The notes: generated by a model from the sequence alone, not told the origin. Positions 8,698 through 58,166 are shown, counted from the first letter of the stretch. The stretch: DNA of 64,000 nucleotides from an uncultured Candidatus Saccharibacteria bacterium (GCA_964616145.1 CAZTRD010000001.1:68024-132023); one strand, 5' to 3'. Numbers and translations: made by a program.

Positions 8698-9078
8698 GTG
8701 GAAACCCCGACGGAGCCTATCAACGTCGGGGTACTGCTATTCGCTGGGAAGTATAGCTACCAGCGCGTGAACTCTAGATCTGGCATCAGGTTTCCCTGCT
8801 ATCCCGAACGGTCCCTGTCACCCGCACAGGTTGCACTTCACGCGGACCCGTCTAGGCGTTCCAGATCTATAGGGATGGTATCCTGTACTTTCCTTTGGGG
8901 GTTACCTCCGTCGAGTTCTCGACGGGTTTTTGAGTGAATCATCCCAGGTCCTTTCGGGTCGAGGGACTATCCTCGCATATACCCATCGGTTACAGAATGA
9001 TAGGGCCATCTGTTAAATCTCAATATAAGATCTAACAACTAGCCCTATCGCCATCCTTGAATTCGTATATCAATGTGC
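8698..9078 (-). ncRNA. ~380-nt GC-rich structured RNA, unclassified. It may be a divergent RNase P RNA.
   Basis: Own minus-strand promoter and terminator hairpin (8705-8712/8724-8731, then UUUCCACUUUU on the minus strand). Many GC helices. RNase P-like strings on the minus strand: AAAGGAAAGUAC (8896-8885), CUGGAACGCCUAG, AAGUGCAAC (8838-8830) and GGGUGACAGGG. I could not trace a P4/CR-V pairing. Confidence 0.55.
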
Positions 9079-9086
9079 TGATTTGA

Positions 9087-9114
9087 AGTTTAATCATATT
9101 TAAAATCTTGTCAA
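9087..9114 (-). promoter_or_regulatory. Promoter of the GC-rich ncRNA (TTGACA-16 nt-TAAACT)
   Basis: Minus strand reads TATTGACAAGATT...TAAACT. The same TATTGACAAGATT string precedes the tRNA-like operon at 14630. Confidence 0.5.
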
Positions 9115-9171
9115 TAGCCATTTTAATTTTCTTTAATTTGAGCTATAACAAAGTATTAATTTAATGTATTT

Positions 9172-10440
9172 ATGCACAAACTATATAAGTTACAGAATGG
9201 ATTGAAGATTTTGTTAGTTCCATATACAGGCACTCAGGCAGTAGCTGTTTTTGTTTCCGCAAAAACAGGAAGTAAAAATGAAAAAAAAGAATTGAACGGT
9301 ATTTCTCATTTTCTTGAACACATGGTTTTTAAAGGAACAGAGAAAATGAAAGATCAGACAGAATTATCTGAAGCAATAGATAAATTGGGGGGAGCATTCA
9401 ATGGTTTTACCAGCGAGGAGAATACCAGCTATTACGCTAAAGTAGCTAATCAGCATCTAGAATTAGCCATTGATTGGGTTTCTCAGCTGTATTTAAAACC
9501 GATTATTCCTTCTCATGAAGTAAAAAAAGAAAAAGGCATAATAATAGAAGAGATTAATATGTATAGGGACAACCCCATGAGTTTTGTAGCCAATCTCTGG
9601 CAAGAATTGCTCTATCCTGGCCAGCCTGCTGGCTGGCCCATAGCTGGGGATAAAAAATCAGTGAATGATATTGAACATAAAGATTTGGTTAGTTATTGGA
9701 AGAATAACTATGTTGCTAATAATACTTTGATTTGTCTGGCCGGGAATTTTGATTCAAAAAAGGGATTGTCCTTGATTAAGAAATATTTTGGAAAGATAAA
9801 TACTGGAAAACCAAATATTAAGCCCAAGCTGATAGAAAAACAAAAATCCCCGGCCTTAAAGATTCATTCCAAAAAAACAGATCAAACTCATCTATTATTA
9901 GGAGTAAAAACATTTAATGTGCATGATGAGAGAAAATATCCTCTAGCCCTGTTATCAGAAACCTTAGGAGGGATGATGAGCTCAAGGTTATTCATTGAAA
10001 TCAGGGAAAAGAGAGGTTTGGCCTACTATGTAGGTACATCTACGGAAGAGAACACTGATTCCGGGTTTCTGGTAACCAGAGCTGGGGTGGAGAATAAAAA
10101 CTCATATGAGGCAGTAAAGGCGATATTAAATGAATATAAAAAAGTCAGAAAGGAAGGTATTACTTCCGAGGAATTGAAGAAAGCCAAGGACTACATCAAA
10201 GGGCAAACTGTATTAGGATTGGAATCTTCTGAGAGCTTGGCAGCTTTTTACAGCAGTCAGGAATTATCAGGAGAAAAGATTAAAACTCCCAACGAAATCT
10301 TTAAAGAGATTGATAAGATTGAAAAATCTGATATTCTTAAAGTAGCGAAAGATATTTTCCGTCCTGATAGATTGAATCTGGCAATGGTTGGCCCGATTTC
10401 CAATCAAGTTAAATTCAAACAATTATTAAAAGATTTTTAG
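9172..10440 (+). CDS. M16 family (insulinase/pitrilysin-like) zinc peptidase
   Basis: Inverted zinc motif HFLEH within GISHFLEHMVFKGT. 422 aa, typical two-domain length. Confidence 0.85.
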   Translation: MHKLYKLQNGLKILLVPYTGTQAVAVFVSAKTGSKNEKKELNGISHFLEHMVFKGTEKMKDQTELSEAIDKLGGAFNGFTSEENTSYYAKVANQHLELAIDWVSQLYLKPIIPSHEVKKEKGIIIEEINMYRDNPMSFVANLWQELLYPGQPAGWPIAGDKKSVNDIEHKDLVSYWKNNYVANNTLICLAGNFDSKKGLSLIKKYFGKINTGKPNIKPKLIEKQKSPALKIHSKKTDQTHLLLGVKTFNVHDERKYPLALLSETLGGMMSSRLFIEIREKRGLAYYVGTSTEENTDSGFLVTRAGVENKNSYEAVKAILNEYKKVRKEGITSEELKKAKDYIKGQTVLGLESSESLAAFYSSQELSGEKIKTPNEIFKEIDKIEKSDILKVAKDIFRPDRLNLAMVGPISNQVKFKQLLKDF

Positions 10441-10441
10441 A

Positions 10442-13596: not shown

Positions 13597-14411
13597 TATT
13601 TGATACTCATGCCCATGTTAATTTCAGGGTTTTTGACAATGATAGGGACGAAGTAATCAAGAAATGCCTGGATAGAGGTATTTCTATCATTAATGTTGGA
13701 AGCAATTTTAATACGTCTGAAATAGCTGTTGATCTGGCTAATCAATATCAAGAAGTATATGCTTCTGTTGGTTTGCATCCGATTCACGTAGATAAGAGCA
13801 TTTTAAGAGTGAAAGATGAAGAAGAGGGTATTAATGAAGAATCCAGTTTTGATTATAACAAATACAAAGAATTAGCTAGGGATAGAAAAGTGGTGGCAAT
13901 TGGAGAAACAGGACTTGATTACTATTACCGTCCCAAAACTAAAACCAAATTAGCAGAATTCAAGGCAAAACAAAAAGAAGTTTTGATAAAACAAGTTGAA
14001 TTAGCAGAAGAATTAAATCTTCCTATCATTTTTCATTGCCGAATGGCTCATGATGATTTGATAGAGTTCTTAAAGGATAAAAAGCTGAGAGGAGTAATAC
14101 ATTGCTTTACCGGGGATTTAAATCAAGCTAAAGAATATATACGAATGGGATACTATTTAGGATTTAATGGAATTATCTTTAAATTGAATCTAGATGAAAT
14201 TATCAAAGAAATCCCGATAGATAGAATTCTTTTAGAAACAGATTGTCCGTATCTTACTCCGTCCGGATATGCTACAGATAGAAATGATCCGATAGGGGTG
14301 GAGTATGTGGCAAAAAGGGTAGCAGAGATTAAAAAGGTAGATCTGACAGAACTTATTAACAAGACGAATGATAATGCGATAAACCTATTCGGATTGGACA
14401 AAATACTATAA
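13593..14411 (+). CDS. tatD: TatD family metal-dependent hydrolase/DNase
   Basis: MIFDTHAHVNF, GETGLDYY, HCR/HCFTG and ETDCPYL motifs. ATGA overlap with metG. Confidence 0.88.
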   Translation: MIFDTHAHVNFRVFDNDRDEVIKKCLDRGISIINVGSNFNTSEIAVDLANQYQEVYASVGLHPIHVDKSILRVKDEEEGINEESSFDYNKYKELARDRKVVAIGETGLDYYYRPKTKTKLAEFKAKQKEVLIKQVELAEELNLPIIFHCRMAHDDLIEFLKDKKLRGVIHCFTGDLNQAKEYIRMGYYLGFNGIIFKLNLDEIIKEIPIDRILLETDCPYLTPSGYATDRNDPIGVEYVAKRVAEIKKVDLTELINKTNDNAINLFGLDKIL

Positions 14412-14456
14412 TTGTGATATCATATAATTACCTGACACCATAAGGAGGTGATTCTA

Positions 14457-14561
14457 ATGAAATGGTGTCCTGAGAAAAGGAAAGCGTTCCCGATCCTTGA
14501 GAGAGTCGGGAATGCGCTCGTTCGTCAGTTCGCCCCTCTCGCTGGCCGGCCTTTGGGCTAG
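14457..14561 (+). CDS. Candidate 34-aa small ORF inside a GC-rich structured island (MKWCPEKRKAFPILERVGNALVRQFAPLAGRPLG)
   Basis: Perfect RBS AAGGAGGTGA 6 nt upstream of the ATG, presented in the loop of hairpin GACACCAT/ATGGTGTC. TATAAT at 14423-14428. The unit could instead be a non-coding RNA. Confidence 0.3.
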   Translation: MKWCPEKRKAFPILERVGNALVRQFAPLAGRPLG

Positions 14562-14592
14562 CCAGCGAGAGGGCATACAACCTAACTATTAT

Positions 14593-14618
14593 AAACAGGT
14601 CTTCCCTGTTTTTGTTTT
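14593..14618 (+). terminator. Intrinsic terminator of the 14.4-kb GC-rich unit
   Basis: AAACAGG-TCTTC-CCTGTTT followed by TTGTTTT. Confidence 0.7.
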
Positions 14619-14629
14619 GGGATATACTA

Positions 14630-14668: not shown

Positions 14669-14758
14669 GCCGGGGTGGTGGAAAAGGGCAGACACGCACA
14701 AGTCTTCACGATTGTGTGAGGATGATCCCTCGTGTAGGTTCAAATCCTACCCTCGGCA
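14669..14758 (+). tRNA. Type II (Leu-like) tRNA-like gene with a 10-nt anticodon loop GUCUUCACGA and no encoded CCA
   Basis: Acceptor GCCGGGG/CCTCGGC plus A73. D arm GTG-GAAAAGGGCAGA-CAC. Anticodon stem CACAA/TTGTG (14697-14701/14712-14716). Long variable arm GAGG-ATGATC-CCTC. T arm GTAGG-TTCAAAT-CCTAC. It aligns arm for arm with tRNA-Leu(CAA) at 25554-25640 except in the loop. Confidence 0.6.
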
Positions 14759-14777: not shown

Positions 14778-14847
14778 GGTGACGTAGCTCAATTGGTAGA
14801 GCACTGGGATAAATCCCGGGGGTGGGGTTCGATTCCTCCCGTCACCT
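14778..14847 (+). tRNA. Class I tRNA-like gene (Phe-like body) with a shortened 6-nt (or 4-nt) anticodon loop AUAAAU and no encoded CCA
   Basis: Acceptor GGTGACG/CGTCACC. D arm GCTC-AATTGGTA-GAGC. Stem CTGGG/CCCGG (14804-14808/14815-14819) encloses only ATAAAT. T arm TGGGG-TTCGATT-CCTCC. Total body is 69 nt. Confidence 0.55.
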
Positions 14848-14934: not shown

Positions 14935-17370
14935 ATGGCTTCTTACGATTTCAAGACAATTGAAAAGAAGTGGCAAGAAAACTGGGATAAAAAAGGGATT
15001 TTTTTGGTTGATGAGAAATCAAAAAAACCAAAAGCATATATTCTAGATATGTTTCCATATCCTTCCGGAGCCGGATTGCATGTTGGTCATCCAAGAGGAT
15101 ATATCGGAACAGATATCATCGCCAGATTCATGAAGATGAAAGGATATAATGTTTTGCATCCCATGGGATGGGATGCATTTGGTCTTCCGGCAGAAAACTA
15201 TGCCATCAAAACAGGCATTCATCCGGAAATATCTACTAAAGAAAACATCCATAAGTTTAAAAAACAAATGGATCTGATTGGTCTTTCATATGATTGGTCC
15301 AGGGAAGTAAATACATCAAATCCGAGTTATTACAAATGGACTCAATGGATATTCCTTTTGCTTTTTAAGAAGGGTTTAGCATATCAAGCGGTTTTGCCAA
15401 TCAATTGGTGTCCGTCTTGCAAGACAGGGTTAGCTAATGAAGAAGTAGTGAATGGAAAATGCGAGAGATGCGGGACAGAAGTTACCAAAAAGAATATCAG
15501 ACAATGGGTATTGAAGATTACTGCATATAGCCAGGAGCTATTAGATGGATTAGAGGGATTAGATTGGCCGGAGAAGATTAAAGAAATGCAGAGAAATTGG
15601 ATAGGGAAATCAGAAGGAGCTGATATTAATTTTCAGGTTAAAGATTCTGATGTGAAGATCAAAGTTTTTACAACTAGGCCCGACACTATTTTTGGAGCCA
15701 CATTCCTTGTTTTGGCTCCAGAGCATCCGATATTAGATAGTATTATTAGTAAAGAAAAGCTAGAAGTTAAAAAATATCAAGAAGAGACAAAAAAGAAATT
15801 AGATATAGATAGGCAATTGGAAGATAAAGAAAAAACAGGAGTATTTATCGGTTCCTATGCTGTTAATCCTGCAACAGGAAAAGAAATACCGATATATATA
15901 GCTGACTATGTCCTTCCATATTACGGCTACGGAGCAATAATAGCAGTTCCTGCTCACGATCAAAGGGACTGGGATTTTGCTAAAAAATATGGACTGGAGA
16001 TTATACAAGTAATTCAATCCCAAGAAAACCTTGAGAGGGTATATATCGGAGAAGGAGATTTGATGAATTCCGGAAAGTTTGATGGAATAAATTCTTCTAA
16101 AGCCCAGAAAGAAATAGTTTCTTGGTTGAAGAAAAAAGGTTTTGCCGATTTTACTGTTAACTATAAATTAAGGGATTGGGTATTCTCCCGCCAGAGATAT
16201 TGGGGAGAACCAATACCTTTGGTATTTTGTCCTCATTGCAAAGAAGAAATTGAATCAGGCAAATACAAGAAAAATGAATTCAGCAAAGGAGAAATATTAA
16301 ATCCTGGCTGGATTGCTTTGGAAGAAAAAGATTTACCTTTAACATTGCCAGAGGTTGATAAATTTGAACCTACTGGGACAGGGGAATCTCCCTTAATCAA
16401 TGTGGCATATTGGATAAAAACCAAATGTCCTAAATGCGGGGGAGAGGCAAAAAGAGAAACAAATACCATGCCTCAATGGGCAGGCTCTTGTTGGTATTTT
16501 ATCCGCTATGCTGATCCTGATAATGAAAAGGAAATTATTGATAGGAAAAAAGAAAAGAAATGGTTGCCTGTTGATTTCTACATTGGAGGAGCAGAGCATG
16601 CAGTTTTGCATCTCTTGTATTCCAGATTCTGGATCAAAGTATTAAAAGAAGAAAAGATCATTTCTTTTGACGAGCCATTTCTTAAATTAAGAACCATTGG
16701 TCTGATTCTAGCTCCAGATGGACAAAAGATGTCAAAATCAAGGGGTAATGTGATAAACCCAGATGATATTATTGAAGAATATGGGGCTGATGCTTTCAGA
16801 ATCCATGAAATGTTCATGGGCCCATTTGATCAGCCAATCAACTGGGATACAAAAAGCATTCTGGGAGCTAAAAGATTTTTAGAGAAGGTATATGCTGCAT
16901 CTAAAAACATTTCTGATAAATCGTCTTTTAAAACAGGAAAGTTGTTGCATAAGACGATAAAGAAAGTAACAGAAGATATACAAGAGCAGAAATTCAATAC
17001 TGCTATTGCTGCAATGATGGAATTCATTAATAATATTGATCAGATATCTTTTGAAGATTTCAGAAAATTCCTTAAGATATTATCAGTATTTGCCCCCCAT
17101 ATATCGGAAGAATTGTATAAGCCAGAGGTTTCCATATTCAATGAATCTTGGCCAGAATACAACAAGAATCTTATCATCGATGAAAAGATAGAAATAATAG
17201 TGCAAGTGAATGGAAAATTAAGAGATACAATTTCTGTTAATCTTGACTCTAATGAAGAAGAAGTCAAGAATCTTGCTTTACAATCAGAAAAGATCCAGAA
17301 ACATCTGGAAGAAAAAGAGATTGGAAAGACAATCTTTGTTAAAAACAAATTAATTAATCTAGTAACATGA
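14935..17370 (+). CDS. leuS: Leucyl-tRNA synthetase
   Basis: MASYDFKTIEKKWQENW, the MFPYPSG..LHVGH class I HIGH-type motif, KMSKSRGN. The tracked ORF start at 14851 overlaps the tRNA and terminator, so ATG 14935 is used. Confidence 0.94.
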   Translation: MASYDFKTIEKKWQENWDKKGIFLVDEKSKKPKAYILDMFPYPSGAGLHVGHPRGYIGTDIIARFMKMKGYNVLHPMGWDAFGLPAENYAIKTGIHPEISTKENIHKFKKQMDLIGLSYDWSREVNTSNPSYYKWTQWIFLLLFKKGLAYQAVLPINWCPSCKTGLANEEVVNGKCERCGTEVTKKNIRQWVLKITAYSQELLDGLEGLDWPEKIKEMQRNWIGKSEGADINFQVKDSDVKIKVFTTRPDTIFGATFLVLAPEHPILDSIISKEKLEVKKYQEETKKKLDIDRQLEDKEKTGVFIGSYAVNPATGKEIPIYIADYVLPYYGYGAIIAVPAHDQRDWDFAKKYGLEIIQVIQSQENLERVYIGEGDLMNSGKFDGINSSKAQKEIVSWLKKKGFADFTVNYKLRDWVFSRQRYWGEPIPLVFCPHCKEEIESGKYKKNEFSKGEILNPGWIALEEKDLPLTLPEVDKFEPTGTGESPLINVAYWIKTKCPKCGGEAKRETNTMPQWAGSCWYFIRYADPDNEKEIIDRKKEKKWLPVDFYIGGAEHAVLHLLYSRFWIKVLKEEKIISFDEPFLKLRTIGLILAPDGQKMSKSRGNVINPDDIIEEYGADAFRIHEMFMGPFDQPINWDTKSILGAKRFLEKVYAASKNISDKSSFKTGKLLHKTIKKVTEDIQEQKFNTAIAAMMEFINNIDQISFEDFRKFLKILSVFAPHISEELYKPEVSIFNESWPEYNKNLIIDEKIEIIVQVNGKLRDTISVNLDSNEEEVKNLALQSEKIQKHLEEKEIGKTIFVKNKLINLVT

Positions 17371-17802: not shown

Positions 17803-20800
17803 ATGTGCGGAATTGTAGGATATATTGGTAAAAAAGAAGCATTGCCCATCATTATTGATGGGCTTAAGCGCCTTGAATACCGCGGATATGATTCTGCCGG
17901 TGTTGTTGTATTAGAGAAACAAGCATCCTTGGTTAAAGTAAAAGGAAGAGTAAAGGATTTAACTGATAAATTAGATGGTCAAAAGATTTTAGGAAGTTGT
18001 GGTATTGGGCATTGTTTGCCACCAAACGTTTTAATTCAGTTGGCTGATGGCAGAATTCTAGAGATTTCAAAAATTACAGATAAAGATAAAATTTTATGCT
18101 TAAATCCAAAGACATTAAAATTTGTGCCTGGGAAGGTCAAGGTTTTTAAGCACGAATCGCCAGATTATATTTATAATATCAAAACAAAGTCAGGCTTTTT
18201 AAATGCGACTGCTGCTCACAAGATGCTTATTTTCTCTGATGGAATTATTCAGAATAAAGTTGTTAAAGATATAAGGAAGGGAGATTTATTAATTTTTCCC
18301 AAACAAATAGAGATAACTGGTAAAAAGATAAATTTCCAAAAGTGTTTTGCCAAAAGATATTATGAGCTTAGCGATAGAGCTGTGGACATGATTAGGTCTG
18401 CCATAAAAGAGAAATCGTTAACCTTGTCCGAACTAGGCCGTAAGATAAAAATTAGCGATAAATATTTACGTCATATCATCAATAATGATCGAAATATCCG
18501 AGAAGATTACCTCAAAAAGATTTTATTTCACCTAAACGTCTTTTTTGATAAAAAAGAATTTGTTCCTGTAGACACGATCCATGGAAAGTTTATAAAACTT
18601 CCAGCTCAAAGCTCGGAGAAATTAATGCAGATTTTAGGATATCTTCTGGGAGATGGCACGGTTCAACCCAAGACAATAAGGTTTAAAGATTTAAATAAGC
18701 AATTATTACAACATTATCAAGGCCTTATAAATAAGGTATTCAATGTAAGGGGAAGGGTGGTATCTCAGAAAGATACTGCTGCATACCTATTAGAAGTTAA
18801 CAGTCAATATTTATCTCGTTGGCTTAAAGTTAATATTATCGACAGAAGTGATGATTTTTTTGGAGAAATCGGGAAACTACCCAACAAAGAAATAGCAGCA
18901 TTTCTAAGAGGATTATTCGATGCAGAGGGGTGCGTTAGTTTGCAATCTAAACAAATAACCCTCAGAATGACAAATCAACGATTAGTAAAAACTGTCCAGA
19001 TGCTATTGCCGCGTTTTAATATTTTATGCTCTTTCACGAAAACAACAAGAAAAAATAAAAATTGGTCAGATGTTTTTAATATCTCTATTAATAATTTCGA
19101 TGGTACTAAAAAATTCCTAGATATTGTGAGGGTTTCTTCACAAGAAAAGCTAAAAAGATGTAAGGCAATTGTAAAACAGATGGAGTTAGATCAATTAAAT
19201 TTTTCTTTTAAATATCTACCCTTTACCAAGAAAGAAATATACGAAAGATATATAAATCCTTTGAAAATTCCGCACGGGAAAATAAAAAAGTTGCTGGGAA
19301 ACGCAAACAATGATTTTCTCACTGGCAAAAAATTCAAAGAGTTGATAGATTATATTATAAAGAATTATCCCGATAAGAAGATAGAAAAAGAGCTCAAAAT
19401 GTTTTCTGAGGGAAATATTGTATTTCAGCCAGCGCAAGAGATCAAGAAAATCAAATCACAGAACAAATACTTGTTTGATATAGAAGTTTCTCCACATGCT
19501 AATTTTATTGCAGATGGTTTTCTAACTCATAATAGTAGATGGGCGACTCATGGAGAACCATCAGAGGTTAATGCTCATCCTCATTTCGATTGTAAAAAAG
19601 AGATATTTGTGGTTCATAATGGAATACTTGAAAACTACGTTTCTCTTAAAGAGAAATTAATAGAGAAAGGACATAAATTTGTATCTGAAACAGATACAGA
19701 AGTTATCGCCCATTTAATAGAGGAATTCTTTGATGGAAATTTAGAAGATGCTTTAAGACGAGCATTAAAAGAAATGGTTGGGGCCTATGCTATTGCGGTA
19801 GTTTCTATAAAAGATCCTGGGAAAATAGTTTTTGCTAAAAAATCCAGTCCATTATTGGTTGGTATCGGCGAAGGAGAAAACTTTATCGCTTCTGATGCGC
19901 CAGCCATATTAGGGAATACAAAAAAGGTAATATATTTAGAAGACAATGAATTGGGAGTAATTACTGCCAATGATTTTAAAATCATTGATTTAGAAAATAA
20001 TAGAATAGAAAAAAAGATTTCTCTTTTGGAATGGGACCTAGAGGAAGCAGAGAAAAAGGGATATCCTCATTTCATGTTTAAAGAAATAATAGAAGAAGGG
20101 GATGCAGTTAGGAATGCTTTAAGAGGAAGAATCCTTCCAGAAGAAGGAGCTATCAAATTTGGAGGATTAGAAGATATAGAAGAAAAATTAAGAAATGTTG
20201 AGAGGATTACAATTATTGCTATGGGGACAGCATATCTGGCAGGATTTGTTGGCAAGTACATGTTAGAAGAATATGCTCAAATGCCTGTTATGTTAGAGAA
20301 TGCATCTGAATTTAGATACAAAAAATCAATTATTGATAAGAATTCAGTAGTAATTGCAGTTTCTCAATCTGGAGAAACTGCAGATACTCTTTTTGCTGTG
20401 AAAGAGGCAAAAAGACAAGGAGCTTTAACCCTGGGCATTATTAACGTGGTAGGTTCCAGTATAGCTAGAGAAGTGGACGCCGGGATATATAACCATGCGG
20501 GACCAGAGATAGGAGTGGCCTCAACTAAGGCCTTTATCTCCGAGTTAGCCGTGTTTGCCCTACTATCTGTATTCTTGGGTAGACAAAGAGGCATGTCTCC
20601 TGTAATGGGCAAAAGAATCATCCAGGAGCTTAACGAGATCCCATCCTTGATAGGGGGCATATTTAAACAAGAAGATAGGATAAAAGAACTAGCTAAGAAG
20701 TACTATAAACATGAAGATTTCTTCTATTTAGGAAGGAAATACAATTATCCTATTGCCTTAGAGGGAGCATTAAAATTAAAGGAAATTTCATATATCCATG

Positions 20801-21147
20801 CAGAAGGATATCAGGCAGGAGAAATGAAGCATGGCCCAATTGCCATGATTGATGAGAATTTCCCTTCAGTTTGTATTGTCCCCAAGGATAGTGTCTATGA
20901 AAAGAATTTCTCTGGCATTCAAGAAATTAAAGCAAGAAAAGGATTAGTAATTGCTATTACTACAGAGGGGAATGATGAATTAGATAACATTGCAGATGAT
21001 GTTTTGTTTATCCCAAAAACTTTAGAAATGTTAACTCCTTTAGTTTCTGTAATTCCTTTACAGCTTTTTGCGTATCATGTGGCTGTGTTGAGGGGGAATG
21101 ATGTAGACAAGCCAAGAAATTTGGCTAAGTCGGTTACCGTGGAATAA
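17803..21147 (+). CDS. glmS: Glutamine--fructose-6-phosphate aminotransferase, intein-containing precursor
   Basis: N-terminal MCGIVGY (catalytic Cys2). Two SIS domains and a C-terminal KPRNLAKSVTVE. The exteins sum to 607 aa once the insert is removed. Confidence 0.93.
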   Translation: MCGIVGYIGKKEALPIIIDGLKRLEYRGYDSAGVVVLEKQASLVKVKGRVKDLTDKLDGQKILGSCGIGHCLPPNVLIQLADGRILEISKITDKDKILCLNPKTLKFVPGKVKVFKHESPDYIYNIKTKSGFLNATAAHKMLIFSDGIIQNKVVKDIRKGDLLIFPKQIEITGKKINFQKCFAKRYYELSDRAVDMIRSAIKEKSLTLSELGRKIKISDKYLRHIINNDRNIREDYLKKILFHLNVFFDKKEFVPVDTIHGKFIKLPAQSSEKLMQILGYLLGDGTVQPKTIRFKDLNKQLLQHYQGLINKVFNVRGRVVSQKDTAAYLLEVNSQYLSRWLKVNIIDRSDDFFGEIGKLPNKEIAAFLRGLFDAEGCVSLQSKQITLRMTNQRLVKTVQMLLPRFNILCSFTKTTRKNKNWSDVFNISINNFDGTKKFLDIVRVSSQEKLKRCKAIVKQMELDQLNFSFKYLPFTKKEIYERYINPLKIPHGKIKKLLGNANNDFLTGKKFKELIDYIIKNYPDKKIEKELKMFSEGNIVFQPAQEIKKIKSQNKYLFDIEVSPHANFIADGFLTHNSRWATHGEPSEVNAHPHFDCKKEIFVVHNGILENYVSLKEKLIEKGHKFVSETDTEVIAHLIEEFFDGNLEDALRRALKEMVGAYAIAVVSIKDPGKIVFAKKSSPLLVGIGEGENFIASDAPAILGNTKKVIYLEDNELGVITANDFKIIDLENNRIEKKISLLEWDLEEAEKKGYPHFMFKEIIEEGDAVRNALRGRILPEEGAIKFGGLEDIEEKLRNVERITIIAMGTAYLAGFVGKYMLEEYAQMPVMLENASEFRYKKSIIDKNSVVIAVSQSGETADTLFAVKEAKRQGALTLGIINVVGSSIAREVDAGIYNHAGPEIGVASTKAFISELAVFALLSVFLGRQRGMSPVMGKRIIQELNEIPSLIGGIFKQEDRIKELAKKYYKHEDFFYLGRKYNYPIALEGALKLKEISYIHAEGYQAGEMKHGPIAMIDENFPSVCIVPKDSVYEKNFSGIQEIKARKGLVIAITTEGNDELDNIADDVLFIPKTLEMLTPLVSVIPLQLFAYHVAVLRGNDVDKPRNLAKSVTVE
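18013..19533 (+). mobile_element. Intein (507 aa) with a LAGLIDADG homing-endonuclease domain, inside GlmS
   Basis: It interrupts the conserved GIGH|(S)RWATHG motif. It starts with Cys (CLPPNVLIQL) and ends ...LTHN followed by Ser+1. Block B-like TAAH. Two LAGLIDADG motifs (LGYLLGDGTV, LRGLFDAEGCV). Confidence 0.88.
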
Positions 21148-28946: not shown

Positions 28947-28984
28947 ATTATTGACTAAATTCCATAATCTGCTATATTGTAATT

Positions 28985-29070
28985 GGCGCTTGGAGGGCCT
29001 TGGCCCTGTCACGGCTATATCCAAGCTGTACCCAAGTGCCATTAAAGAATACCGCGAAACGGTATTTTTT
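28985..29070 (+). ncRNA. ~86-nt GC-rich structured element, either a + strand sRNA or the structured leader of pth on the - strand
   Basis: + strand: TTGACT(28951-28956)-16 nt-TATATT, then GGCGCTTGG...CCAAGTGCC closing helix, inner hairpin AGGGC-CTTG-GCCCT, and terminator ATACCG-CGAAA-CGGTAT-TTTTT. - strand: an extended -10 TGaTATAAT at about 29083-29095 would transcribe the same element as the pth 5' UTR. Confidence 0.45.
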
Positions 29071-29200
29071 AATTTCTTTATGTTTCTATTATATCAAAAC
29101 ATGGATTGACTACAAAATGCAATTGTTATAACATTTCTTTTAGTAGGCAAGAATGGTTCTTGCCAATTCGCAAACTTGCGAGAAAGGGTGGGTGAAAGTT

Positions 29201-29605
29201 ATGGAAGAAAAGAGCGTTCTTCAGTTGTATTCGATTCTCCTGCTCCATCCTGAAGTTCTGGATCCGCTGAAGCACTTGGGGCTGCCTCGGGATATCAAGC
29301 CCGAAGATCTGATCAGCTGCCTTGAGCTGTATCAGAGGATAGGGAAGTCCTATCAAGAACTTGTTCCTGAGGGAGATGACGGGGAGAGCGAAAGATTGAG
29401 GCTAGTTCACGATCTTCTCGAAGAGCTCTCAGGATGTTTCACCGAGCTGTCTGGCAACTTCGGGCCAAGGCCTATTCACAGGATCCGAAGAGCCATCCAG
29501 TGGTGGTGGCATCTTCATCTTCACGAGAATCTCCCCGGAGCGAAGATCGACGATCCCTACTTCATGGGGCCCAAGCATCTCAAACTGGATCCGGAGCGGG
29601 GATAG
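29201..29605 (+). CDS. GC-rich hypothetical protein (134 aa, acidic, helical-looking), island gene
   Basis: Preceded by TTGACT (29106-29111) with a TAACAT/TATAAC -10, two leader hairpins, and an SD-like AAAGGGTGGGTGA 5 nt before the ATG. Followed by a strong terminator. Composition differs sharply from flanking genes. Confidence 0.5.
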   Translation: MEEKSVLQLYSILLLHPEVLDPLKHLGLPRDIKPEDLISCLELYQRIGKSYQELVPEGDDGESERLRLVHDLLEELSGCFTELSGNFGPRPIHRIRRAIQWWWHLHLHENLPGAKIDDPYFMGPKHLKLDPERG

Positions 29606-29626
29606 GAGCAGTTCGCGAGTTTGGAC

Positions 29627-29668
29627 GGGCTGCTGTTCGACGGACCAGCAGCCCACTTCTTTTGTTTG
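29627..29668 (+). terminator. Intrinsic terminator of the 29-kb island gene
   Basis: GGGCTGCTG-10 nt-CAGCAGCCC followed by ACTTCTTTTGTTTG. Confidence 0.7.
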
Positions 29669-38792: not shown

Positions 38793-38821
38793 TTGACGAA
38801 TACAATATAGTATGCTATGGT
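38793..38821 (+). promoter_or_regulatory. Promoter of the 38.8-kb GC-rich island (TTGACG-17 nt-TATGGT)
   Basis: Good -35/-10 spacing immediately after the comEC stop. Confidence 0.5.
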
Positions 38822-38852
38822 ATGGATACATGGGGGAGAGGAGGATGGTATC

Positions 38853-39056
38853 ATGCCCAGAGGACAAGGAAACAAATCCAAGCCGGGCCCCAAGAAGCCG
38901 CCCGACAAGCTATTGATCTACATCCCGCAGTCGAAGGTTGCGCGGCAACCTGTCGAGCGGCTGATGAAGATCGGCGCGAAAAAGGATCGGTCCGTCAGCT
39001 ACCTCGTCGTCGAGGCCATTCTGCAGTACCTCGACCGTGAGGAGAACAAGTCGTAG
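38853..39056 (+). CDS. Ribbon-helix-helix (CopG/Arc-like) DNA-binding protein, 67 aa, GC-rich island gene
   Basis: SD GAGGAGGA 7 nt before the ATG. Lys/Pro-rich tail, then a beta-strand (LLIYIP) and two helices (VERLMKIGAKK, SVSYLVVEAILQYLDRE). Confidence 0.65.
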   Translation: MPRGQGNKSKPGPKKPPDKLLIYIPQSKVARQPVERLMKIGAKKDRSVSYLVVEAILQYLDREENKS

Positions 39057-39088
39057 CTCGTGAGAGCTACAAGAAAGGAGGTGGTCTC

Positions 39089-39109
39089 ATGAAGACGGGG
39101 CCGCCGTAA
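39089..39109 (+). CDS. Candidate 6-codon mini-ORF MKTGPP-stop
   Basis: Perfect RBS AAAGGAGGTG 6 nt upstream. It ends in Pro-Pro-stop. It lies between two hairpins and the island terminator. Confidence 0.25.
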   Translation: MKTGPP

Positions 39110-39140
39110 CAAGCTGTACATTGGAGAGATCAGGCTCTCC

Positions 39141-39186
39141 GGGGGACCGGTGCCCGCATGCACTTCAGGTCCCCCTCATCTTTTTT
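39141..39186 (+). terminator. Intrinsic terminator of the 38.8-kb island
   Basis: GGGGGACC-19 nt-GGTCCCCC followed by TCATCTTTTTT. Confidence 0.7.
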
Positions 39187-40202: not shown

Positions 40203-40245
40203 TGCACCAAAAAATAGGTCTTAATCGTAATGATTATATAGACCT

Positions 40246-40683: not shown

Positions 40684-40687
40684 AAAT

Positions 40688-42879: not shown

Positions 42880-42884
42880 ATACT

Positions 42885-43595: not shown

Positions 43596-44815
43596 AAATA
43601 TATGATTTAATACAAGAAACCTGTTCAGCTCTCTTGAGAAATAAGGCCAGATCAGGATTAACGATTCTTGGCATTGTGATTGGGATTGGTTCAGTTATTG
43701 CCATGATATCTATAGGCCAAGGAGCTCAAAGTTCAATTCAATCAAATATTGAATCAATGGGATCTAATTTGCTTTTGGTGTACCCTGGAACTCAAAGATC
43801 CCTAGGGACACAAGTCAGATCAAGCTTTGGCTCTGCTAAATCACTCACGATGGAAGATGTAGAAGCTATTGCTCAACAAACTAACTATATTTCATATGTT
43901 GCACCTGACCAATCAGGGAGATACCAGGTAACGGCTAAGGGAACAAATACCAACACACAGGTTATGGGAGTAACATTCGCCTATTCAACCGTTAGAAATG
44001 TGGAAGTGGCTGAAGGCGATTTCATTTCTGATCAAAATGTAAACAACATATCTAAAGTTGCTGTTTTGGGGCCAAGCGTTGTAGAAGATCTTTTTGGAGA
44101 AGACGCCAATGCAGTAGGACAGACAATCAGGATTAACAAAATCACATTTAAAGTTATTGGAGTGACTGAAGAAAAGGGAAGTTCTGGTATGAGCAACCAA
44201 GACGATATGATATATATTCCATTAACTACGAATCAAAAATTTCTATCTGGCAACGAATATTTAAGTACAATCAGTATCCAAGTCTCTGATCAGAACTTAA
44301 TGACTATGGCTCAAGAGGAAGTTACAAGTCTTCTTTTGGATCAACACAACATTTCCGATTCTACTTTAGCCGATTTTAGGATCATGAATCAAAGTGATTT
44401 AGTTGAGAGCGCTTCTTCCATCGCTGACACCTTAACAATACTATTGGGGTCTATTGCCGGAATTTCTTTGATTGTCGGAGGCATTGGGATAATGAACATG
44501 ATGTTGACTACAGTTACAGAAAGAACCAGAGAGATTGGATTAAGGAAAGCAGTTGGGGCTAAAAGAAAAGACATCAATCTTCAATTCTTGGCTGAAGCAA
44601 CCATGCTTACTCTGATAGGGGGTATATGCGGGATAATCTTAGGTTGGGGGATAGCCGCAATTCTTACAAAACTTGATGTTACAACAACAAAAGTCTCTAT
44701 GGGATCAGTTTTTCTATCCTTTGGGGTTTCTGCGGCAATAGGGATAATATTCGGATATTATCCGGCCAGAAGAGCATCAAGGCTTAATCCGATAGAAGCA
44801 TTAAGGTACGAATAA
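43592..44815 (+). CDS. ABC transporter permease (MacB/FtsX family)
   Basis: MacB periplasmic domain followed by an FtsX C-terminal 3-TM domain (REIGLRKAVGAKRKDI, P..A.RL.P.EALR.E). Confidence 0.9.
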   Translation: MKIYDLIQETCSALLRNKARSGLTILGIVIGIGSVIAMISIGQGAQSSIQSNIESMGSNLLLVYPGTQRSLGTQVRSSFGSAKSLTMEDVEAIAQQTNYISYVAPDQSGRYQVTAKGTNTNTQVMGVTFAYSTVRNVEVAEGDFISDQNVNNISKVAVLGPSVVEDLFGEDANAVGQTIRINKITFKVIGVTEEKGSSGMSNQDDMIYIPLTTNQKFLSGNEYLSTISIQVSDQNLMTMAQEEVTSLLLDQHNISDSTLADFRIMNQSDLVESASSIADTLTILLGSIAGISLIVGGIGIMNMMLTTVTERTREIGLRKAVGAKRKDINLQFLAEATMLTLIGGICGIILGWGIAAILTKLDVTTTKVSMGSVFLSFGVSAAIGIIFGYYPARRASRLNPIEALRYE

Positions 44816-44830
44816 TTAAAATGTAAAAAT

Positions 44831-45244
44831 ATGAATAAAACTTTACTTATCGTTATACTTTCTGCAGCGGTTCTGATTATTGGTGCGTTTTTTGGAGGAA
44901 TGGTGTATGGCAAGAATCAGATAAGATCAAGATCCCTTGGAAATATATTTGATATAAAGCCGGGAGGATTTGGTACCAGTACAACCGAAAGGATGAATAA
45001 CAGAAATGGCGCAGGGATGACAATGGGAGAAATAATTTCTAAGGATTCGGAAAGTATCACTATTAAGACTCAAGATGGAGGATCTAAGATAATACTTTTT
45101 TCTGATTTAACTCAGATAGCAAAATCTACTAGCGGGAGTATAGATGACTTGGAAATTGGGAAAACAATTGGAGTTAGCGGAACTTCCAATACTGATGGAA
45201 GTATTACGGCTAAAAATATCAGCTTACAAAATCAGATAAAATAA
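44831..45244 (+). CDS. Membrane-anchored small beta-rich protein (DUF5666-like), paralog of 40688-41203
   Basis: See 40688-41203. The two paralogs bracket the MacAB-like genes. Confidence 0.6.
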   Translation: MNKTLLIVILSAAVLIIGAFFGGMVYGKNQIRSRSLGNIFDIKPGGFGTSTTERMNNRNGAGMTMGEIISKDSESITIKTQDGGSKIILFSDLTQIAKSTSGSIDDLEIGKTIGVSGTSNTDGSITAKNISLQNQIK

Positions 45245-49335: not shown

Positions 49336-49337
49336 GG

Positions 49338-49360
49338 AAAAGGGGTGGTTGGCCCCTTTT
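49338..49360. terminator. Bidirectional intrinsic terminator (clpB on +, island unit 3 on -)
   Basis: AAAGGGG-TGGTTGG-CCCCTTTT with A/T runs on both sides. Confidence 0.7.
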
Positions 49361-49425
49361 CTGTTTGAGAGGTCGGTATGTACGAGCTTGTTAATCCCTG
49401 CACCTCCTTTAAAGGTACTGCTTGC

Positions 49426-49536
49426 CTAACGCCCAGAACGCTGACAAACGATAAGCCAGGAAGTTCGTGGTCTTGGTAAGATGTGCCACCAATTCCATCT
49501 TCTTGGCCGCCGCTGCCTGCTTCTGGTCCTTTTCAT
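49426..49536 (-). CDS. Candidate 36-aa Arg/Trp-rich small ORF (MKRTRSRQRRPRRWNWWHILPRPRTSWLIVCQRSGR), island unit 3
   Basis: Perfect RBS AAGGAGGG (49550-49543) 7 nt before ATG 49536-49534. TATAAT at 49570-49565. An overlapping frame also encodes MELVAHLTKTTNFLAYRLSAFWALGKQYL. The coding status of both is unproven. Confidence 0.25.
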   Translation of the reverse strand: MKRTRSRQRRPRRWNWWHILPRPRTSWLIVCQRSGR

Positions 49537-49586
49537 CTGTGTCCCTCCTTACGGGTAGGTGTTTATTATATATCATAGTTTCTAGT

Positions 49587-49795
49587 AAAAAACAAAGAAA
49601 CCGACCAGAGAATGGTCGGGAAAGAGCATGTGTCAAGGATGGAGACCGCGGTGGTATCGTTAGTTCTCCTCCGCGGCCTCACATCCTCTCCGCAAGGACA
49701 CAAGCAAACCTTGCGGTCTAACAACCCCTCGCCTCTTTCCCTCTCGCCCGTGAGAGGGTCATCTAGTGGAGGGGTAGGGTCTTACTTGTTGTTAT
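49587..49795 (-). ncRNA. GC-rich structured transcript, ~200 nt, unclassified (island unit 2)
   Basis: Minus-strand hairpins CCCTCTC-ACGGGC-GAGAGGG, CCGCAAGG-11 nt-CCTTGCGG and GGCCGCGG-19 nt-CCGCGGTC nested in AGGATG/CATCCT. It ends in terminator CCGACCA-TTCTC-TGGTCGG-TTTCTTTGTTTTTT (49620-49587). The 5' end is uncertain. Confidence 0.45.
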
Positions 49796-49825
49796 CTTCT
49801 ACCTACTTCTATGATTTGTCAATGT

Positions 49826-50006
49826 TTTAAAAGCAAAAGAGCCGACCACGAATGTGATCGGTTCTCGGTTGGCGCCCGTAAGGGCAAAGAACATGAGCGG
49901 ATAGGTCCGCCACCTGGAGGAGCTGCCGAAGCAGCCCCTCCTAAGTGGTTTAGTCGTGCGCCCCCGCACGGCCAACTCCCCTCTCTGCCATAGAGAAAGG
50001 AAGGTC
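49826..50006 (-). ncRNA. GC-rich structured transcript, ~180 nt, unclassified (island unit 1)
   Basis: Multi-stem junction closed by GTTGGC/GCCAAC. It contains GTGCG-GGGG-CGCAC, an 11-bp GGAGGGGCTGC-TTCG-GCAGCTCCTCC, CGGA-CCTA-TCCG and GCCC-TTAC-GGGC. Terminator CCGATCAC-ATTC-GTGGTCGG-CTCTTTTGCTTTT (49861-49826). Confidence 0.5.
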
Positions 50007-50012
50007 ATTATT

Positions 50013-50042
50013 ATTTTACTATCTTTGTTTACTTACAGTCAA
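50013..50042 (-). promoter_or_regulatory. Promoter of island unit 1 (TTGACT-18 nt-TAAAAT)
   Basis: Minus-strand -35 at 50042-50037 and -10 at 50018-50013. Confidence 0.5.
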
Positions 50043-50742: not shown

Positions 50743-50743
50743 T

Positions 50744-55380: not shown

Positions 55381-55386
55381 AGAGGC

Positions 55387-56479: not shown

Positions 56480-56486
56480 AGGTCTA

Positions 56487-56515
56487 TTGACTAGAATAAA
56501 TAATGGTATTATACT
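56487..56515 (+). promoter_or_regulatory. Promoter (TTGACT-17 nt-TATACT) followed by a 7-bp inverted repeat TGGTCAA-12 nt-TTGACCA
   Basis: Consensus-like hexamers. The inverted repeat lies between the -10 and the ATPase start codon. Confidence 0.5.
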
Positions 56516-56565
56516 AACCGTACTGGTCAAGAATCAGCTATTTTGACCACTACAATATAAATAAT

Positions 56566-57831
56566 ATGCTTAAAGATGTAGTTTTGCGTCAGAAAAAGGA
56601 AAAAGAAGATTTTATAAAACCTCAATACATAGAAAGGACCCAAGATGTTTTGGGAAAGAAATGGCTAGATTCCAATCTTATCAAAGTTATTCTAGGCCCT
56701 CGTCGCGCAGGAAAATCAATCTTCTCTCTTATGCTCTTGAAAGATCGTTCTTTCGCCTATTTTAATTTTGATGATGAAATTCTTACAAGCTCAAAAGGAA
56801 TATCTACAGATGAATTAATGAAAGAATTGCACGCCGTCTATGGGGATACAAAAAATATTTTCTTTGATGAAATTCAAAACTTACCAAATTGGGAATTGTT
56901 TGTAAATAGATTACATAGAGAAGGATATAATCTAATTCTAACTGGTTCGAATGCAAAATTACTTTCTAAAGAATTAGCTACTACTTTAACCGGTAGATAT
57001 ATTCCCATAGAAATATTACCATTCAATTTTAAGGAATTCTTGCGTGCCAAGGGTTTTATAATAGAGAACAATCTTTTACCTCAGAAGCACGGGGAGCTTT
57101 TGAAACTGATGGAAGAATATCTCATAAACGGAGGATTTCCAGAGGTTATTGTAAAGAAACTAGACTCCAAGGAATATTTAGATGTTCTTTTTGACTCGGT
57201 TTTATTTAAAGACGTGGTTAAAAGATACAAGGTAAGGTTCTCAGTTCAGATAGGAAATCTTGGCTCCCATCTCGTTAACAGTTTTTCTTCTCTTTATAGC
57301 TTAAGAAAGCTACAAGATATTCTAGGGCTAAAGAGTGTTACCACGGTAGAGAAATACACTAAATACCTAGAAGAAGCTTATTTAATATTTTCATTATTAC
57401 GCTATTCTCCGAAATCGCTGCAACGAATCAGGTCTCCTAAAAAGGTTTATGTCGTAGATAATGGTTTTATCGGCGCAAAAGCCATTCAGCATTCACCAGA
57501 TAAAGGAAAGTTAATGGAAAACTTAGTTTTTTTGGAGTTAATAAAAAGAGGATTAGAGCCCAACCATGATATTTTCTATTTTAAGACTAAGACCGGCAAA
57601 GAAATAGATTTTGTTATCAAGAATGAGACAGTTGTCTCTCAGTTAATTCAATCTTCTTACGATATAGAAAATCAAGACACTGAAAAAAGAGAAATTAGTG
57701 CCCTGCAAGAAGCCAGCAGAGAATTAAAAACAAAAGATGTTTTAATTTTAACTTGGGACACGGAAAAAGAGATAAAGGAAAACAATTTAACTATAAAATT
57801 TCAACCGATATGGAAATGGATGATGGAATGA
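56566..57831 (+). CDS. AAA+ ATPase of the AAA_14/DUF4143 type
   Basis: Walker A GPRRAGKS, Walker B IFFDEIQ, C-terminal DUF4143-like region (KVYVVDNG). Confidence 0.8.
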   Translation: MLKDVVLRQKKEKEDFIKPQYIERTQDVLGKKWLDSNLIKVILGPRRAGKSIFSLMLLKDRSFAYFNFDDEILTSSKGISTDELMKELHAVYGDTKNIFFDEIQNLPNWELFVNRLHREGYNLILTGSNAKLLSKELATTLTGRYIPIEILPFNFKEFLRAKGFIIENNLLPQKHGELLKLMEEYLINGGFPEVIVKKLDSKEYLDVLFDSVLFKDVVKRYKVRFSVQIGNLGSHLVNSFSSLYSLRKLQDILGLKSVTTVEKYTKYLEEAYLIFSLLRYSPKSLQRIRSPKKVYVVDNGFIGAKAIQHSPDKGKLMENLVFLELIKRGLEPNHDIFYFKTKTGKEIDFVIKNETVVSQLIQSSYDIENQDTEKREISALQEASRELKTKDVLILTWDTEKEIKENNLTIKFQPIWKWMME

Positions 57832-58006
57832 ATTGATCGACCTATATAGAGGATCCCGGCATCATTTGTGCATAGTAACTAAATATGGCAAAAGGAAGGA
57901 TAGGGCCTGGAGATATAATGATATTTGTCATCCTTCAATAAAGTACCATTTCGTTGTACTATGATGGTGTTTTTTGCTTAGGTTGAAGTAAAGAGAAAGG
58001 AGAAGA

Positions 58007-58117
58007 ATGGACCTGGATCTCAATCTCGCGATGGATGGTTGGTGGGCTTTGATCAGGGTTTCCCTGTTCTTTGCCTCTGCCTGGCTGGGTTGGAAGGAGG
58101 TGAACTACCGCTCCTGA
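58007..58117 (+). CDS. Candidate 36-aa hydrophobic small protein (MDLDLNLAMDGWWALIRVSLFFASAWLGWKEVNYRS), GC-rich island
   Basis: RBS AAAGGAGA 5 nt upstream. One predicted TM helix flanked by Trp residues. A strong terminator follows directly. Confidence 0.35.
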   Translation: MDLDLNLAMDGWWALIRVSLFFASAWLGWKEVNYRS

Positions 58118-58133
58118 CATCTATTGCTTCACC

Positions 58134-58166
58134 GAGAAAGGCTACCGCTGGTAGCCCTTCTCTTTT
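58134..58166 (+). terminator. Intrinsic terminator of the 58-kb island
   Basis: GAGAAAGGCTACC-GCT-GGTAGCCCTTCTC followed by TTTT. Confidence 0.7.

Follow-up and report, generated by a model that had tools for sequence, protein, structure and literature searches.

Phage morons, in accounts ascribed to Hendrix and to Juhala et al., are reportedly autonomous promoter-gene-terminator units that lie between conserved genes and usually deviate from them in base composition. In AT-rich genomes, GC-rich intergenic regions are said to have been used by Klein et al. in 2002 as signposts of noncoding RNA (ncRNA). The Bacteroidetes, in work attributed to Jha et al. in 2021, reportedly have their anti-Shine-Dalgarno (anti-SD) sequestered by bS21, bS18, and bS6 and keep a few genes led by a Shine-Dalgarno (SD) sequence. 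The Candidate Phyla Radiation (CPR), or Patescibacteria, makes up a large share of bacterial diversity and is almost uncultured, and its rules of gene expression are deduced from sequence alone. This study concerns six GC-rich intergenic islands (I1 to I6) in a 64,000-nt stretch of DNA, referred to here as the window, from an uncultured Candidatus Saccharibacteria bacterium (GCA_964616145.1, CAZTRD010000001.1:68024-132023). When both strands are read, the islands resolve into about nine units, with I3 a composite of two (I3a and I3b) and I5 of three (I5a to I5c). The reading that we favor, at a probability of roughly 0.55, is that these are micro-cassettes of moron-like character, acquired horizontally by a Parcubacteria lineage that otherwise does without SDs, and that their GC-rich mRNAs depend on SD-led initiation. 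The cassettes are a variation on known themes, namely, morons or horizontally acquired islets, GC-rich intergenic RNAs, and SD-poor lineages with few SD-led genes.

The best analogy appears to be a phage moron moved to a CPR chromosome, without membership of that class in the strict sense. Like morons, the units have a promoter, an open reading frame (ORF), and a terminator of their own, as judged by sequence matches; they lie between genes that are adjacent in relatives (I1 and I3, compared with the genome called relative A below), deviate in GC content, are patchily distributed, and include one cargo gene of a phage family. Unlike morons, they reside in a cellular chromosome and not in a phage or prophage, with no phage genes found in the window; their cargo is 34 to 134 amino acids (aa) long or RNA only, and their mode of initiation differs from that of the host. 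In two papers on the Breaker laboratory's GC-rich intergenic region (GC-IGR) pipeline, such regions are established ncRNA signposts (PMC6429828 and PMC11109978). The islands give the same detection signal, and I1, I3a, I5b, and I5c lack an ORF and show a strong folding excess, but at least three islands are protein coding, none matches a known RNA family, and the units are poorly conserved, whereas the GC-IGR approach relies on conservation. As in SD-poor Bacteroidetes, core genes are SD-less and a small special set has strong SDs; here, however, that set is accessory, GC rich, partly phage related, and not ribosomal or autoregulatory.

GC-rich islands and their boundaries

An earlier, sequence-only reading of the window had described six GC-rich islands in AT-rich DNA, and a sliding 200-nt GC profile bore this out, with the coordinates correct to a few bases. 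The GC content of the window was 36.4%. Outside the islands, 200-nt windows had a mean GC of 0.354 (standard deviation, 0.041; maximum, 0.49; n = 579), and the peak values for I1 to I6 were 0.56, 0.54, 0.555, 0.57, 0.555, and 0.475, corresponding to z scores of 5.0, 4.5, 4.8, 5.2, 4.8, and 2.9, with I6 the weakest. All nonoverlapping 200-nt windows with a GC of at least 0.50 fell inside the islands, which cover 5.3% of the window. The GC-rich stretch of I2 runs on into two tRNA-like genes. A further rise at the right end (positions 61124 to 64000; GC of 0.43 to 0.47) marks where a gene for a very large, repeat-like protein of surface type, rich in Thr, Gly, and Ala, begins; this gene runs off the window and is not an island of the kind studied.

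Island GC was 0.50 to 0.57 versus 0.35 for the host, and GC at third codon positions (GC3) was 0.51 to 0.81 in island ORFs versus 0.31. The ribbon-helix-helix (RHH) gene of I4 had a GC3 of 0.81 with an ordinary second-position value (GC2) of 0.35, and the ORF of I6 had a GC3 of 0.73. In both the RHH gene and I3b, GC at first positions exceeded GC2, which was far below GC3. Arginine was encoded by CGN codons in 48% of cases in island ORFs versus 13% in host genes.

The islands had also been described as delimited by promoters and terminators, in agreement with the sequence matches at unit borders. As a class, promoter-like matches were not enriched in the AT-rich window; the best-scoring ones lie at island borders, as do the strongest terminator hairpins. 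Between 49.0 and 58.6 kb, 20 terminator-like hairpins were observed versus 7.3 ± 3.4 expected, and the four strongest were island terminators. The earlier layout needs correction in that the minus strand gives the best reading for I1 and for each of the three I5 units. The islands had no shared repeats, and blastn detected no similarity between them, consistent with the earlier failure to see homology; an SD 9-mer is all that they have in common. Their neighbors are housekeeping genes: ileS, glyQS, an M16 peptidase gene, leuS, pth, lepB, hisS, comEC, dgkA, and clpB.

Shine-Dalgarno sequences in islands and host genes

SD strength was measured as the energy of the most stable duplex that the canonical anti-SD could form with the 20 nt preceding an ORF. 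For 48 host genes the median was -0.9 kcal/mol; one reached -6 kcal/mol and none reached -7 kcal/mol. Island ORFs gave -12.6 (I2), -7.4 (I3), -12.0 (RHH gene of I4), -12.6 (mini-ORF of I4), -12.4 (I5a), and -8.7 kcal/mol (I6). The SD of I2, TAAGGAGGTGAT, is complementary to the canonical 16S tail over 12 nt. Related genomes were reached via FtsZ and PerM homologs and comprised relative A (93% FtsZ identity), a second A-like genome, and relatives C (86%), B (82%), and D (67%). Among 75 host genes of A, B, and D, a single one had a duplex of -7 kcal/mol or stronger, versus 10 of 11 island ORFs at -8.7 kcal/mol or stronger; the split between host genes and islands is clade-wide, and the claim that canonical SDs precede island ORFs and are absent from host genes held in all four genomes. 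The exceptional host gene, on the minus strand of the relative D contig at 18977 to 19687 (-11.3 kcal/mol), encodes 236 aa without a Pfam match and may be another imported gene. Native small genes of the window (an 88-aa DUF5654 gene and a conserved 80-aa ORF) had GC3 values of 0.27 and 0.31 and no SD, so that the contrast is not a matter of small size. Literature searches that paired (anti-)Shine-Dalgarno with Patescibacteria or Candidate Phyla Radiation turned up no account of GC-rich, SD-led micro-genes in CPR.

SD motifs were kept between orthologous cassettes of the window species and relative A while the surrounding bases diverged, which suggests that the SDs are used and would require a usable anti-SD. 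The 9-mer AAGGAGGTG occurs in four exact copies in the 64 kb, all within islands and in the sense of their own unit; the copy in I2 is the only one of the four with a real ORF behind it. In relative A, the 3' SD-like elements of I4 and I5a are kept. The sequence-only reading had raised the idea that SD-like strings serve some purpose other than starting translation, which is conceivable for the three copies of AAGGAGGTG just upstream of terminators; that they dock the 30S subunit and thereby stabilize the transcript or modulate termination is a guess.

The same sites in related genomes

The nearest ClpB relatives were Patescibacteria (Staskawiczbacteria and similar) with 65% identity, and the closer FtsZ and PerM homologs carry the labels Candidatus Paceibacterota or Pacebacteria. 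No island homologs were found in the distant CPR relatives from the ClpB scan (~65% identity). Across relatives A to D, gene order was conserved and the islands were not. At the I1 site, relative A has an 80-bp gap, a clean indel of ~390 nt between flanks that are ~93% identical, and relative B has an unrelated GC-rich minus-strand unit of ~220 nt with a TGnTATAAT promoter and a terminator. The I2 site holds an ortholog with its reading frame kept in A and, in B, an unrelated cassette of two ORFs, both SD led, without the tRNA-like genes. I3 is absent from A as a clean indel, with Pth and LepB 61 bp apart, and is likewise absent from C and D; B carries there an unrelated GC-rich unit with a membrane ORF of ~84 aa on the minus strand. 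At the I4 site, A has an orthologous cassette plus a 52-aa rubredoxin gene (GC3 of 0.66), B has an unrelated unit of ~350 nt whose end is formed by a strong SD, a mini-ORF of two codons, and a hairpin, and D has other genes downstream of ComEC. At the I5 site, A contains I5a and a single I5b/I5c-like RNA in place of two. Relative D has a unit of its own between dprA and pth, with TTGACA/TATACT promoter elements, the SD GAAAGGAGGGAGGG, a 68-aa ORF, and a terminator. The comparison covered I1 to I5 in A, I1 to I4 in B, I3 in C, and I3 and I4 in D. The islands are accessory: an ortholog, an unrelated GC-rich unit, or nothing is found at the same intergenic sites.

An all-against-all blastn comparison of the units returned only the orthologs of the window species and relative A, together with one promoter piece. 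This piece, AATCTGCTATATTGTAAT, is identical over 18 nt between window positions 28966 to 28983 (I3a) and relative B contig positions 15351 to 15368 (the unit at the I4 site); the surrounding region, including the -35 box, matches at 28 of 33 nt, and the transcribed parts, at different loci of two species, are unrelated.

The RHH protein and its phage relatives

The RHH protein of I4 belongs to an unnamed, tight family of 207 representative clusters (E ≤ 1e-3) with the consensus DKLSIYIPQ..PVERL.KLG.KRDRSVNYLVVEAILQYL.REE. It may have the strand-helix-helix pattern of the CopG/Arc/MetJ repressors, and profile similarity places it in that superfamily: the family profile matched the CopG-family structures 6iya (E = 1.5e-5) and 7etr (E = 3.9e-5) as well as ORF56 of pRN1 and the RHH domain of PutA, the single sequence by itself gave an E value of only about 1, and PHROGs gave a weak match to an Arc-like repressor (E = 1e-3). 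Unlike those repressors, it lies in a subfamily without a name or a Pfam model above threshold, RHH_1 being subthreshold in two homologs. An AlphaFold2 (AF2) monomer model (predicted local distance difference test [pLDDT] score of 65) shows an extended stretch near residue 19, with helices at residues 33 to 42 and 48 to 66; a Foldseek search of the PDB with this model returned no match.

The family is carried by 19 IMG/VR phage contigs; of the 17 examined, 16 have a GC content of 51 to 64% and one of 44%, and strong SDs are present in nearly all. The RHH gene lies 1 to 1.5 kb from that of the terminase large subunit in six or more of the contigs. The DNA of the window gene is 77 to 79% identical over about 150 nt to phage genes on contigs of 56 to 64% GC, whereas its codon-aligned nucleotide identity to the relative A copy is 0.71 over 57 codons. 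These sequence comparisons establish the kinship of the RHH gene with phage genes. The protein had no match in plasmid and cultured-phage collections, nor did the six concatenated islands match cultured phages at blastn sensitivity. The terminases beside the phage RHH genes were considered as a guide to donor or host, but with only 21 to 26% identity to cultured phages they were uninformative.

Origin and maintenance of the cassettes

According to the favored reading, each unit would consist of a sigma-70-type promoter and an intrinsic terminator around an SD-led small ORF or a compact structured RNA. The protein cargo would comprise a 34-aa peptide, a 134-aa orphan, the 67-aa CopG/Arc-like RHH repressor, a 36-aa Arg/Trp-rich peptide, and a 36-aa hydrophobic peptide. 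The RHH gene would derive from a phage gene pool, and for the other units too we infer horizontal import from SD-using donors of higher GC, probably about 50 to 65% because most phage contigs with the RHH family have that GC. A few permissive intergenic sites would take up, lose, and exchange cassettes, whose terminators may shield the neighboring genes. The AT-rich mRNAs of the host would initiate without an SD, and the GC-rich, structured cassette mRNAs would recruit ribosomes through SD:anti-SD pairing. A probable role of the RHH protein is to repress the cassette that encodes it and, in relative A, the cotranscribed rubredoxin gene as well, and the RNA-only units would act as small RNAs (sRNAs).

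If true, a clean split between an SD-less core and an SD-led, GC-rich accessory set would be a simple sequence signature of recently acquired or specially regulated genes, and it would bear on whether the anti-SD still works in Parcubacteria, an open point in PMC9297842. There would also be gene flow from a higher-GC phage gene pool into a 36% GC, episymbiont-type genome that encodes the DNA uptake proteins ComEC and DprA, both found in the window. The earlier proposal of a "family of foreign or selfish micro-cassettes" survives in part: the units are self-contained for expression, foreign in composition and mode of initiation, and accessory, and the RHH gene has its phage link. They do not form a sequence family, as their common sequence is limited to the SD 9-mer and the 18-nt cross-species promoter piece, and selfishness or mobility found no support in the form of an integrase, repeats, or a convincing target duplication.

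Several points weigh against horizontal import. The whole evidence base is 64 kb and a small number of related genomes. Neither the islands nor the window yielded an integrase, a transposase, flanking repeats, or a convincing target duplication; integron and other site-specific cassettes, typified by an attC-like site and an integrase, also differ from the island units in that the latter carry their own promoters. Only the RHH gene has an identified donor pool, the other island peptides and RNAs having no match in the RHH phage contigs, cultured phages, IMG/VR, PHROGs, or PADLOC. The cassette promoters are AT rich and host-like, and the -35 element of I1 sits in a flank common to relative A, where it reads TTAACA. 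I2, I4, and I5a were already present in the ancestor of the window species and relative A; at third positions they have diverged by 47%, 46%, and 37%, respectively, as much as the host genes for FtsZ (40%), ClpB (39%), TatD (37%), and DAGK (48%), and their GC3 is still 0.5 to 0.8, with no drift to the host value. Synonymous third-position changes between G and C numbered 5 of 15 in the RHH gene versus 11 of 315 in ClpB; the counts are small. This suggests that the high GC is no fading relic but is maintained, either because mRNA structure or stability is under selection or because cassettes are replaced repeatedly from an outside pool. Finally, Tsurumaki et al. in 2022 (PMC9297842) detected an anti-SD motif in just 48% of 16S sequences from Parcubacteria; the 16S gene of the present organism lies outside the window. 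The same study reports that bS21 is often missing in Parcubacteria and suggests that SD helices do not form in those lineages, a picture that fits the SD-less core genes seen here and sharpens the question of the role of the island SDs.

The main rival reading, in our judgment unlikely, is that the units were never imported but are native, lineage-specific, fast-evolving small genes whose high GC and extended SDs are held by selection, for example as stable structured RNAs gated through a rarely used SD:anti-SD channel, comparable to the few SD-led genes in Bacteroidetes. The persistence of GC3 against a host equilibrium of about 0.3, the excess of G-to-C and C-to-G synonymous changes in the RHH gene, and the conservation of SD motifs amid diverging flanks are as expected for native genes, as are the host-like promoters, one piece of which is common to unrelated units of two species, and the same architecture in relatives A, B, and D. 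Native origin is harder to reconcile with an RHH gene at least as close to phage genes of 56 to 64% GC as to the sister-species copy, with units absent or replaced at orthologous sites of close relatives, with the AT-rich, SD-less state of the native small genes, and with the orphan status of the 134-aa ORF. Were the units native and GC selected, they would represent a novel class of small CPR regulators and peptides.

A bolder scheme, which we consider distinctly unlikely, would have a second, SD-dependent channel reserved for fast-turning-over GC-rich micro-genes, with an unusually long complementarity of 9 to 13 nt to the canonical 16S tail and an actively maintained GC3, in which the 3' copies of AAGGAGGTG are 30S-docking elements and not start signals. 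Cassettes acquired by competence might then record DNA of the symbiont's host or of that host's phages and could serve as host predictors.

Coding sequence or structured RNA

A strong folding excess was found for I2 (z = -7.5), I3a (-6.6), I5c (-6.3; no shuffled sequence folded equally well), I5b (about -4.8), and the minus strand of I1 (-4.7, versus -2.3 for the plus strand), and little or none for I5a (about 0 to -1), I3b (-2), and I4 (-2.9). These values invite the interpretation that all islands are structured ncRNAs or cis-regulatory leaders, with incidental SD-like strings and ORFs. GC-rich ORFs indeed occur in several frames, and pairing is kept through compensated changes between the window species and relative A in the I2 hairpin and, as isolated pairs, in the 3' hairpin of I4. 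As an account of all islands it is nevertheless improbable, because I2, I4, and I5a are protein coding by comparative sequence evidence. Between the window species and relative A, the RHH gene differs at 15 codons by synonymous changes only and at 18 by nonsynonymous ones (11, 13, and 26 differences at the first, second, and third positions). I2 keeps its frame despite indels, and its C-terminal PLAGRP is encoded with four synonymous changes; the PLAGRP segment is the 5' arm of the hairpin, whose 3' arm has changed in compensation, so that both coding and structural constraint appear to act. I5a keeps its frame, its stop codon, and indels of multiples of 3 nt, including one of 9 nt. A family of 207 clusters and a CopG match for the RHH protein and codon periodicity of GC in the RHH gene and I3b point the same way. 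The failure of every island to match Rfam and the missing covariation support for I5b and I5c also count against an all-RNA account.

Coding periodicity in the 134-aa ORF of I3b takes the form of GC values of 0.64, 0.33, and 0.61 at codon positions 1, 2, and 3. Among 5.8e9 proteins its only match was itself, with none in IMG/VR, and its single-sequence AF2 model is helical with a pLDDT score of 59, too weak for a fold search. No island peptide matched Pfam, and no island protein matched PADLOC.

In I1, I3a, I5b, and I5c no SD-led ORF was found, and for these four the structured-RNA view is our working reading: on folding and unit architecture, they look like sRNA candidates. No known family was recognized among them. 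With Rfam 15, only tRNAs passed in the window and in the relatives' loci, and no island of the window gave a match at the gathering score, at E ≤ 1 for the whole window, or at E ≤ 10 for isolated I1 and I5. As candidates for RNase P, tmRNA, signal recognition particle (SRP), or 6S RNA, I1 and I5b/I5c matched no model, and ARAGORN found no tmRNA. Homology with covariation among I5b, I5c, and the relative A RNA was also considered but is unsupported, as their homology is weak and, with two to three homologous sequences, the alifold covariation term was unfavorable. The earlier suggestion of structured ncRNAs applies at most to these four units and is wrong for I2, I4, and I5a, and the RHH regulator and hydrophobic peptide that had been proposed as cargo are present.

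The RHH frame chosen in the sequence-only reading is the one conserved between the window species and relative A (38853-39056). The public gene call in I4 (72 aa, 38822-39040) is in another frame, the wrong one, which illustrates how GC-rich islands in AT-rich genomes mislead gene callers; if the split described above is real, such genes would be mishandled in this way.

Toxin-antitoxin modules as an improbable alternative, and assembly junctions

The units could instead be type I toxin-antitoxin-like or other selfish small-peptide modules with sequestered strong SDs, kept by addiction, which we find very improbable. Only I6 encodes a small hydrophobic peptide, MDLDLNLAMDGWWALIRVSLFFASAWLGWKEVNYRS, of 36 aa with a polar tail; further small membrane peptides occur in islands of relatives A and B, and in general the modules resemble such systems in being intergenic and variable, with structured mRNAs, strong SDs, and strong terminators. 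Predicted folds show partial pairing of the 5' SD regions, and the SD of I4 pairs with the 3' end, but sequestration is inconsistent, the SD being fully open in the I2 unit of relative A. Unlike type I systems, no adjacent antisense promoter or RNA was detected, and a minus-strand hairpin by I6 is the terminator of a convergent 179-aa gene. The products of I2 and I5a, the RHH protein, and the 134-aa protein are not hydrophobic, and PADLOC gave no support.

An artefact of assembly or binning, by which GC-rich reads were stitched into a CPR contig, might be suspected from the abrupt jumps in composition at island borders but is effectively refuted, since independent ENA, Logan, and JGI assemblies, made from different samples by different pipelines, give the same sequence for I3, I4, and their junctions (three to four assemblies; I4 in three and I3b in four) and since the orthologous cassettes of the sister species have codiverged with the flanking genes. 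Absence from orthologous loci (I1 and I3 in A; I3 in C and D) had been named in advance as a possible sign of chimerism when paired with chimeric junctions; the absences are real, yet the I3 and I4 junctions agree among assemblies.

Anatomy of the units

The features of the units are listed in Table 1. The terminator of I5a stands back to back with clpB and is shared with it. The hairpin of I2 at 14535-14572 is strong and encloses the stop codon, and the predicted fold of I5c includes an 11-bp hairpin capped by UUCG.

Table 1. Positions of the island units, their elements, and copies of the 9-mer in the window
Feature	Position	Strand	Elements and remarks
I1, ORF-less unit of ~390 nt, candidate structured sRNA	8697..9087	-	Terminator hairpin 8705-8731, then T-rich tail
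I1 promoter-like site	9087..9114	-	TTGACA, 16 nt, TAAACT (sequence match)
I2	14395..14621	+	Promoter-like 14395-14423; SD 14441-14452; 34-aa ORF 14457-14561; terminator 14593-14611
AAGGAGGTG copy, I2	14442	+	Precedes the 34-aa ORF
I3a, structured sRNA candidate of ~90 nt	28951..29073	+	Promoter TTGACT, 16 nt, TATATT (with TG: TGcTATATT); terminator 29041-29073
I3b	29106..29668	+	Promoter-like 29106-29134; weak SD; 134-aa orphan ORF 29201-29605; terminator hairpin 29627-29654 and T run
I4	38793..39186	+	Promoter 38793-38821; SD 38837-38845; 67-aa RHH ORF 38853-39056
I4, 3' part	39075..39175	+	Second SD AAGGAGGTG 39075-39083; 6-codon mini-ORF MKTGPP 39089-39109; terminator hairpin 39141-39175 and T run
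AAGGAGGTG copy, I4	39075	+	Precedes the 6-codon mini-ORF; ~58 nt upstream of terminator stem
I5a	49337..49566	-	SD TAAGGAGGG 49543-49551; 36-aa Arg/Trp-rich ORF 49536-49426; orphan AAGGAGGTG 49401-49409; terminator 49337-49361
AAGGAGGTG copy, I5a	49401	-	No ORF after it; ~40 nt upstream of terminator
I5b, structured RNA candidate of ~200 nt	49596..49822	-	TTGACA 49822-49817 (weak -10); terminator 49601-49619
I5c, compact multistem RNA candidate of ~170 nt	49838..50042	-	Promoter TTGACT, 18 nt, TAAAAT 50042-50013; terminator 49842-49861
I6	57990..58166	+	SD GAAAGGAGA; 36-aa hydrophobic peptide ORF 58007-58117; in-ORF AAGGAGGTGA 58094-58103; terminator 58140-58156
AAGGAGGTG copy, I6	58094	+	Within the last ORF codons; ~38 nt upstream of terminator

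The 3' layout of I4 is the same in the window (39089-39186), relative A (about 8800-8915), and relative B (about 15590-15700), with a strong SD, an ORF of two to six codons, a hairpin, and a terminator just upstream of dgkA. It is kept even where the rest of the unit is unrelated, as in B, and its mini-ORFs read MKTGPP in the window, MGP in A, and ML in B. The hairpin loop GGUGCCCGCA is conserved between the window and A, with a compensated change in the stem. This layout may be a leader or attenuator for dgkA. The 52-aa rubredoxin gene of relative A (contig 8641-8799) lies between the RHH gene and the mini-ORF and has its own SD; the I4 cassette of the window has no rubredoxin gene, and an AT-rich desulfoferrodoxin gene is found at 25162-25533.

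Neighboring genes

Between dgkA and htrA, a 5.6-kb block of host-like GC (39639-45244) contains a sigma-70/ECF-type gene and six more genes; it is absent from relatives A and B, in which dgkA adjoins htrA. The glmS gene (17803-21147; 1114 aa) contains an intein with a LAGLIDADG homing-endonuclease domain, according to Pfam matches for the identical gene in another assembly, and in relative D an intein is present in nrdD instead. A TCCACAG motif common to the vicinity of I5 and I6 was not significant.

Two aberrant tRNA-like genes follow I2. The first (14669-14758) is 90 nt long and combines a long variable arm with an anticodon stem of 5 bp that closes a loop of 10 nt, GUCUUCACGA, in which ARAGORN reads the 4-base anticodon "ttca." In the second (14778-14847), a UAAA tetraloop caps the 6-bp stem into which the anticodon arm folds. 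Both score above the tRNA threshold of Rfam and are missing from the same site in relative B; they may represent oddities of decoding, regulators that resemble tRNAs, or imports in decay.

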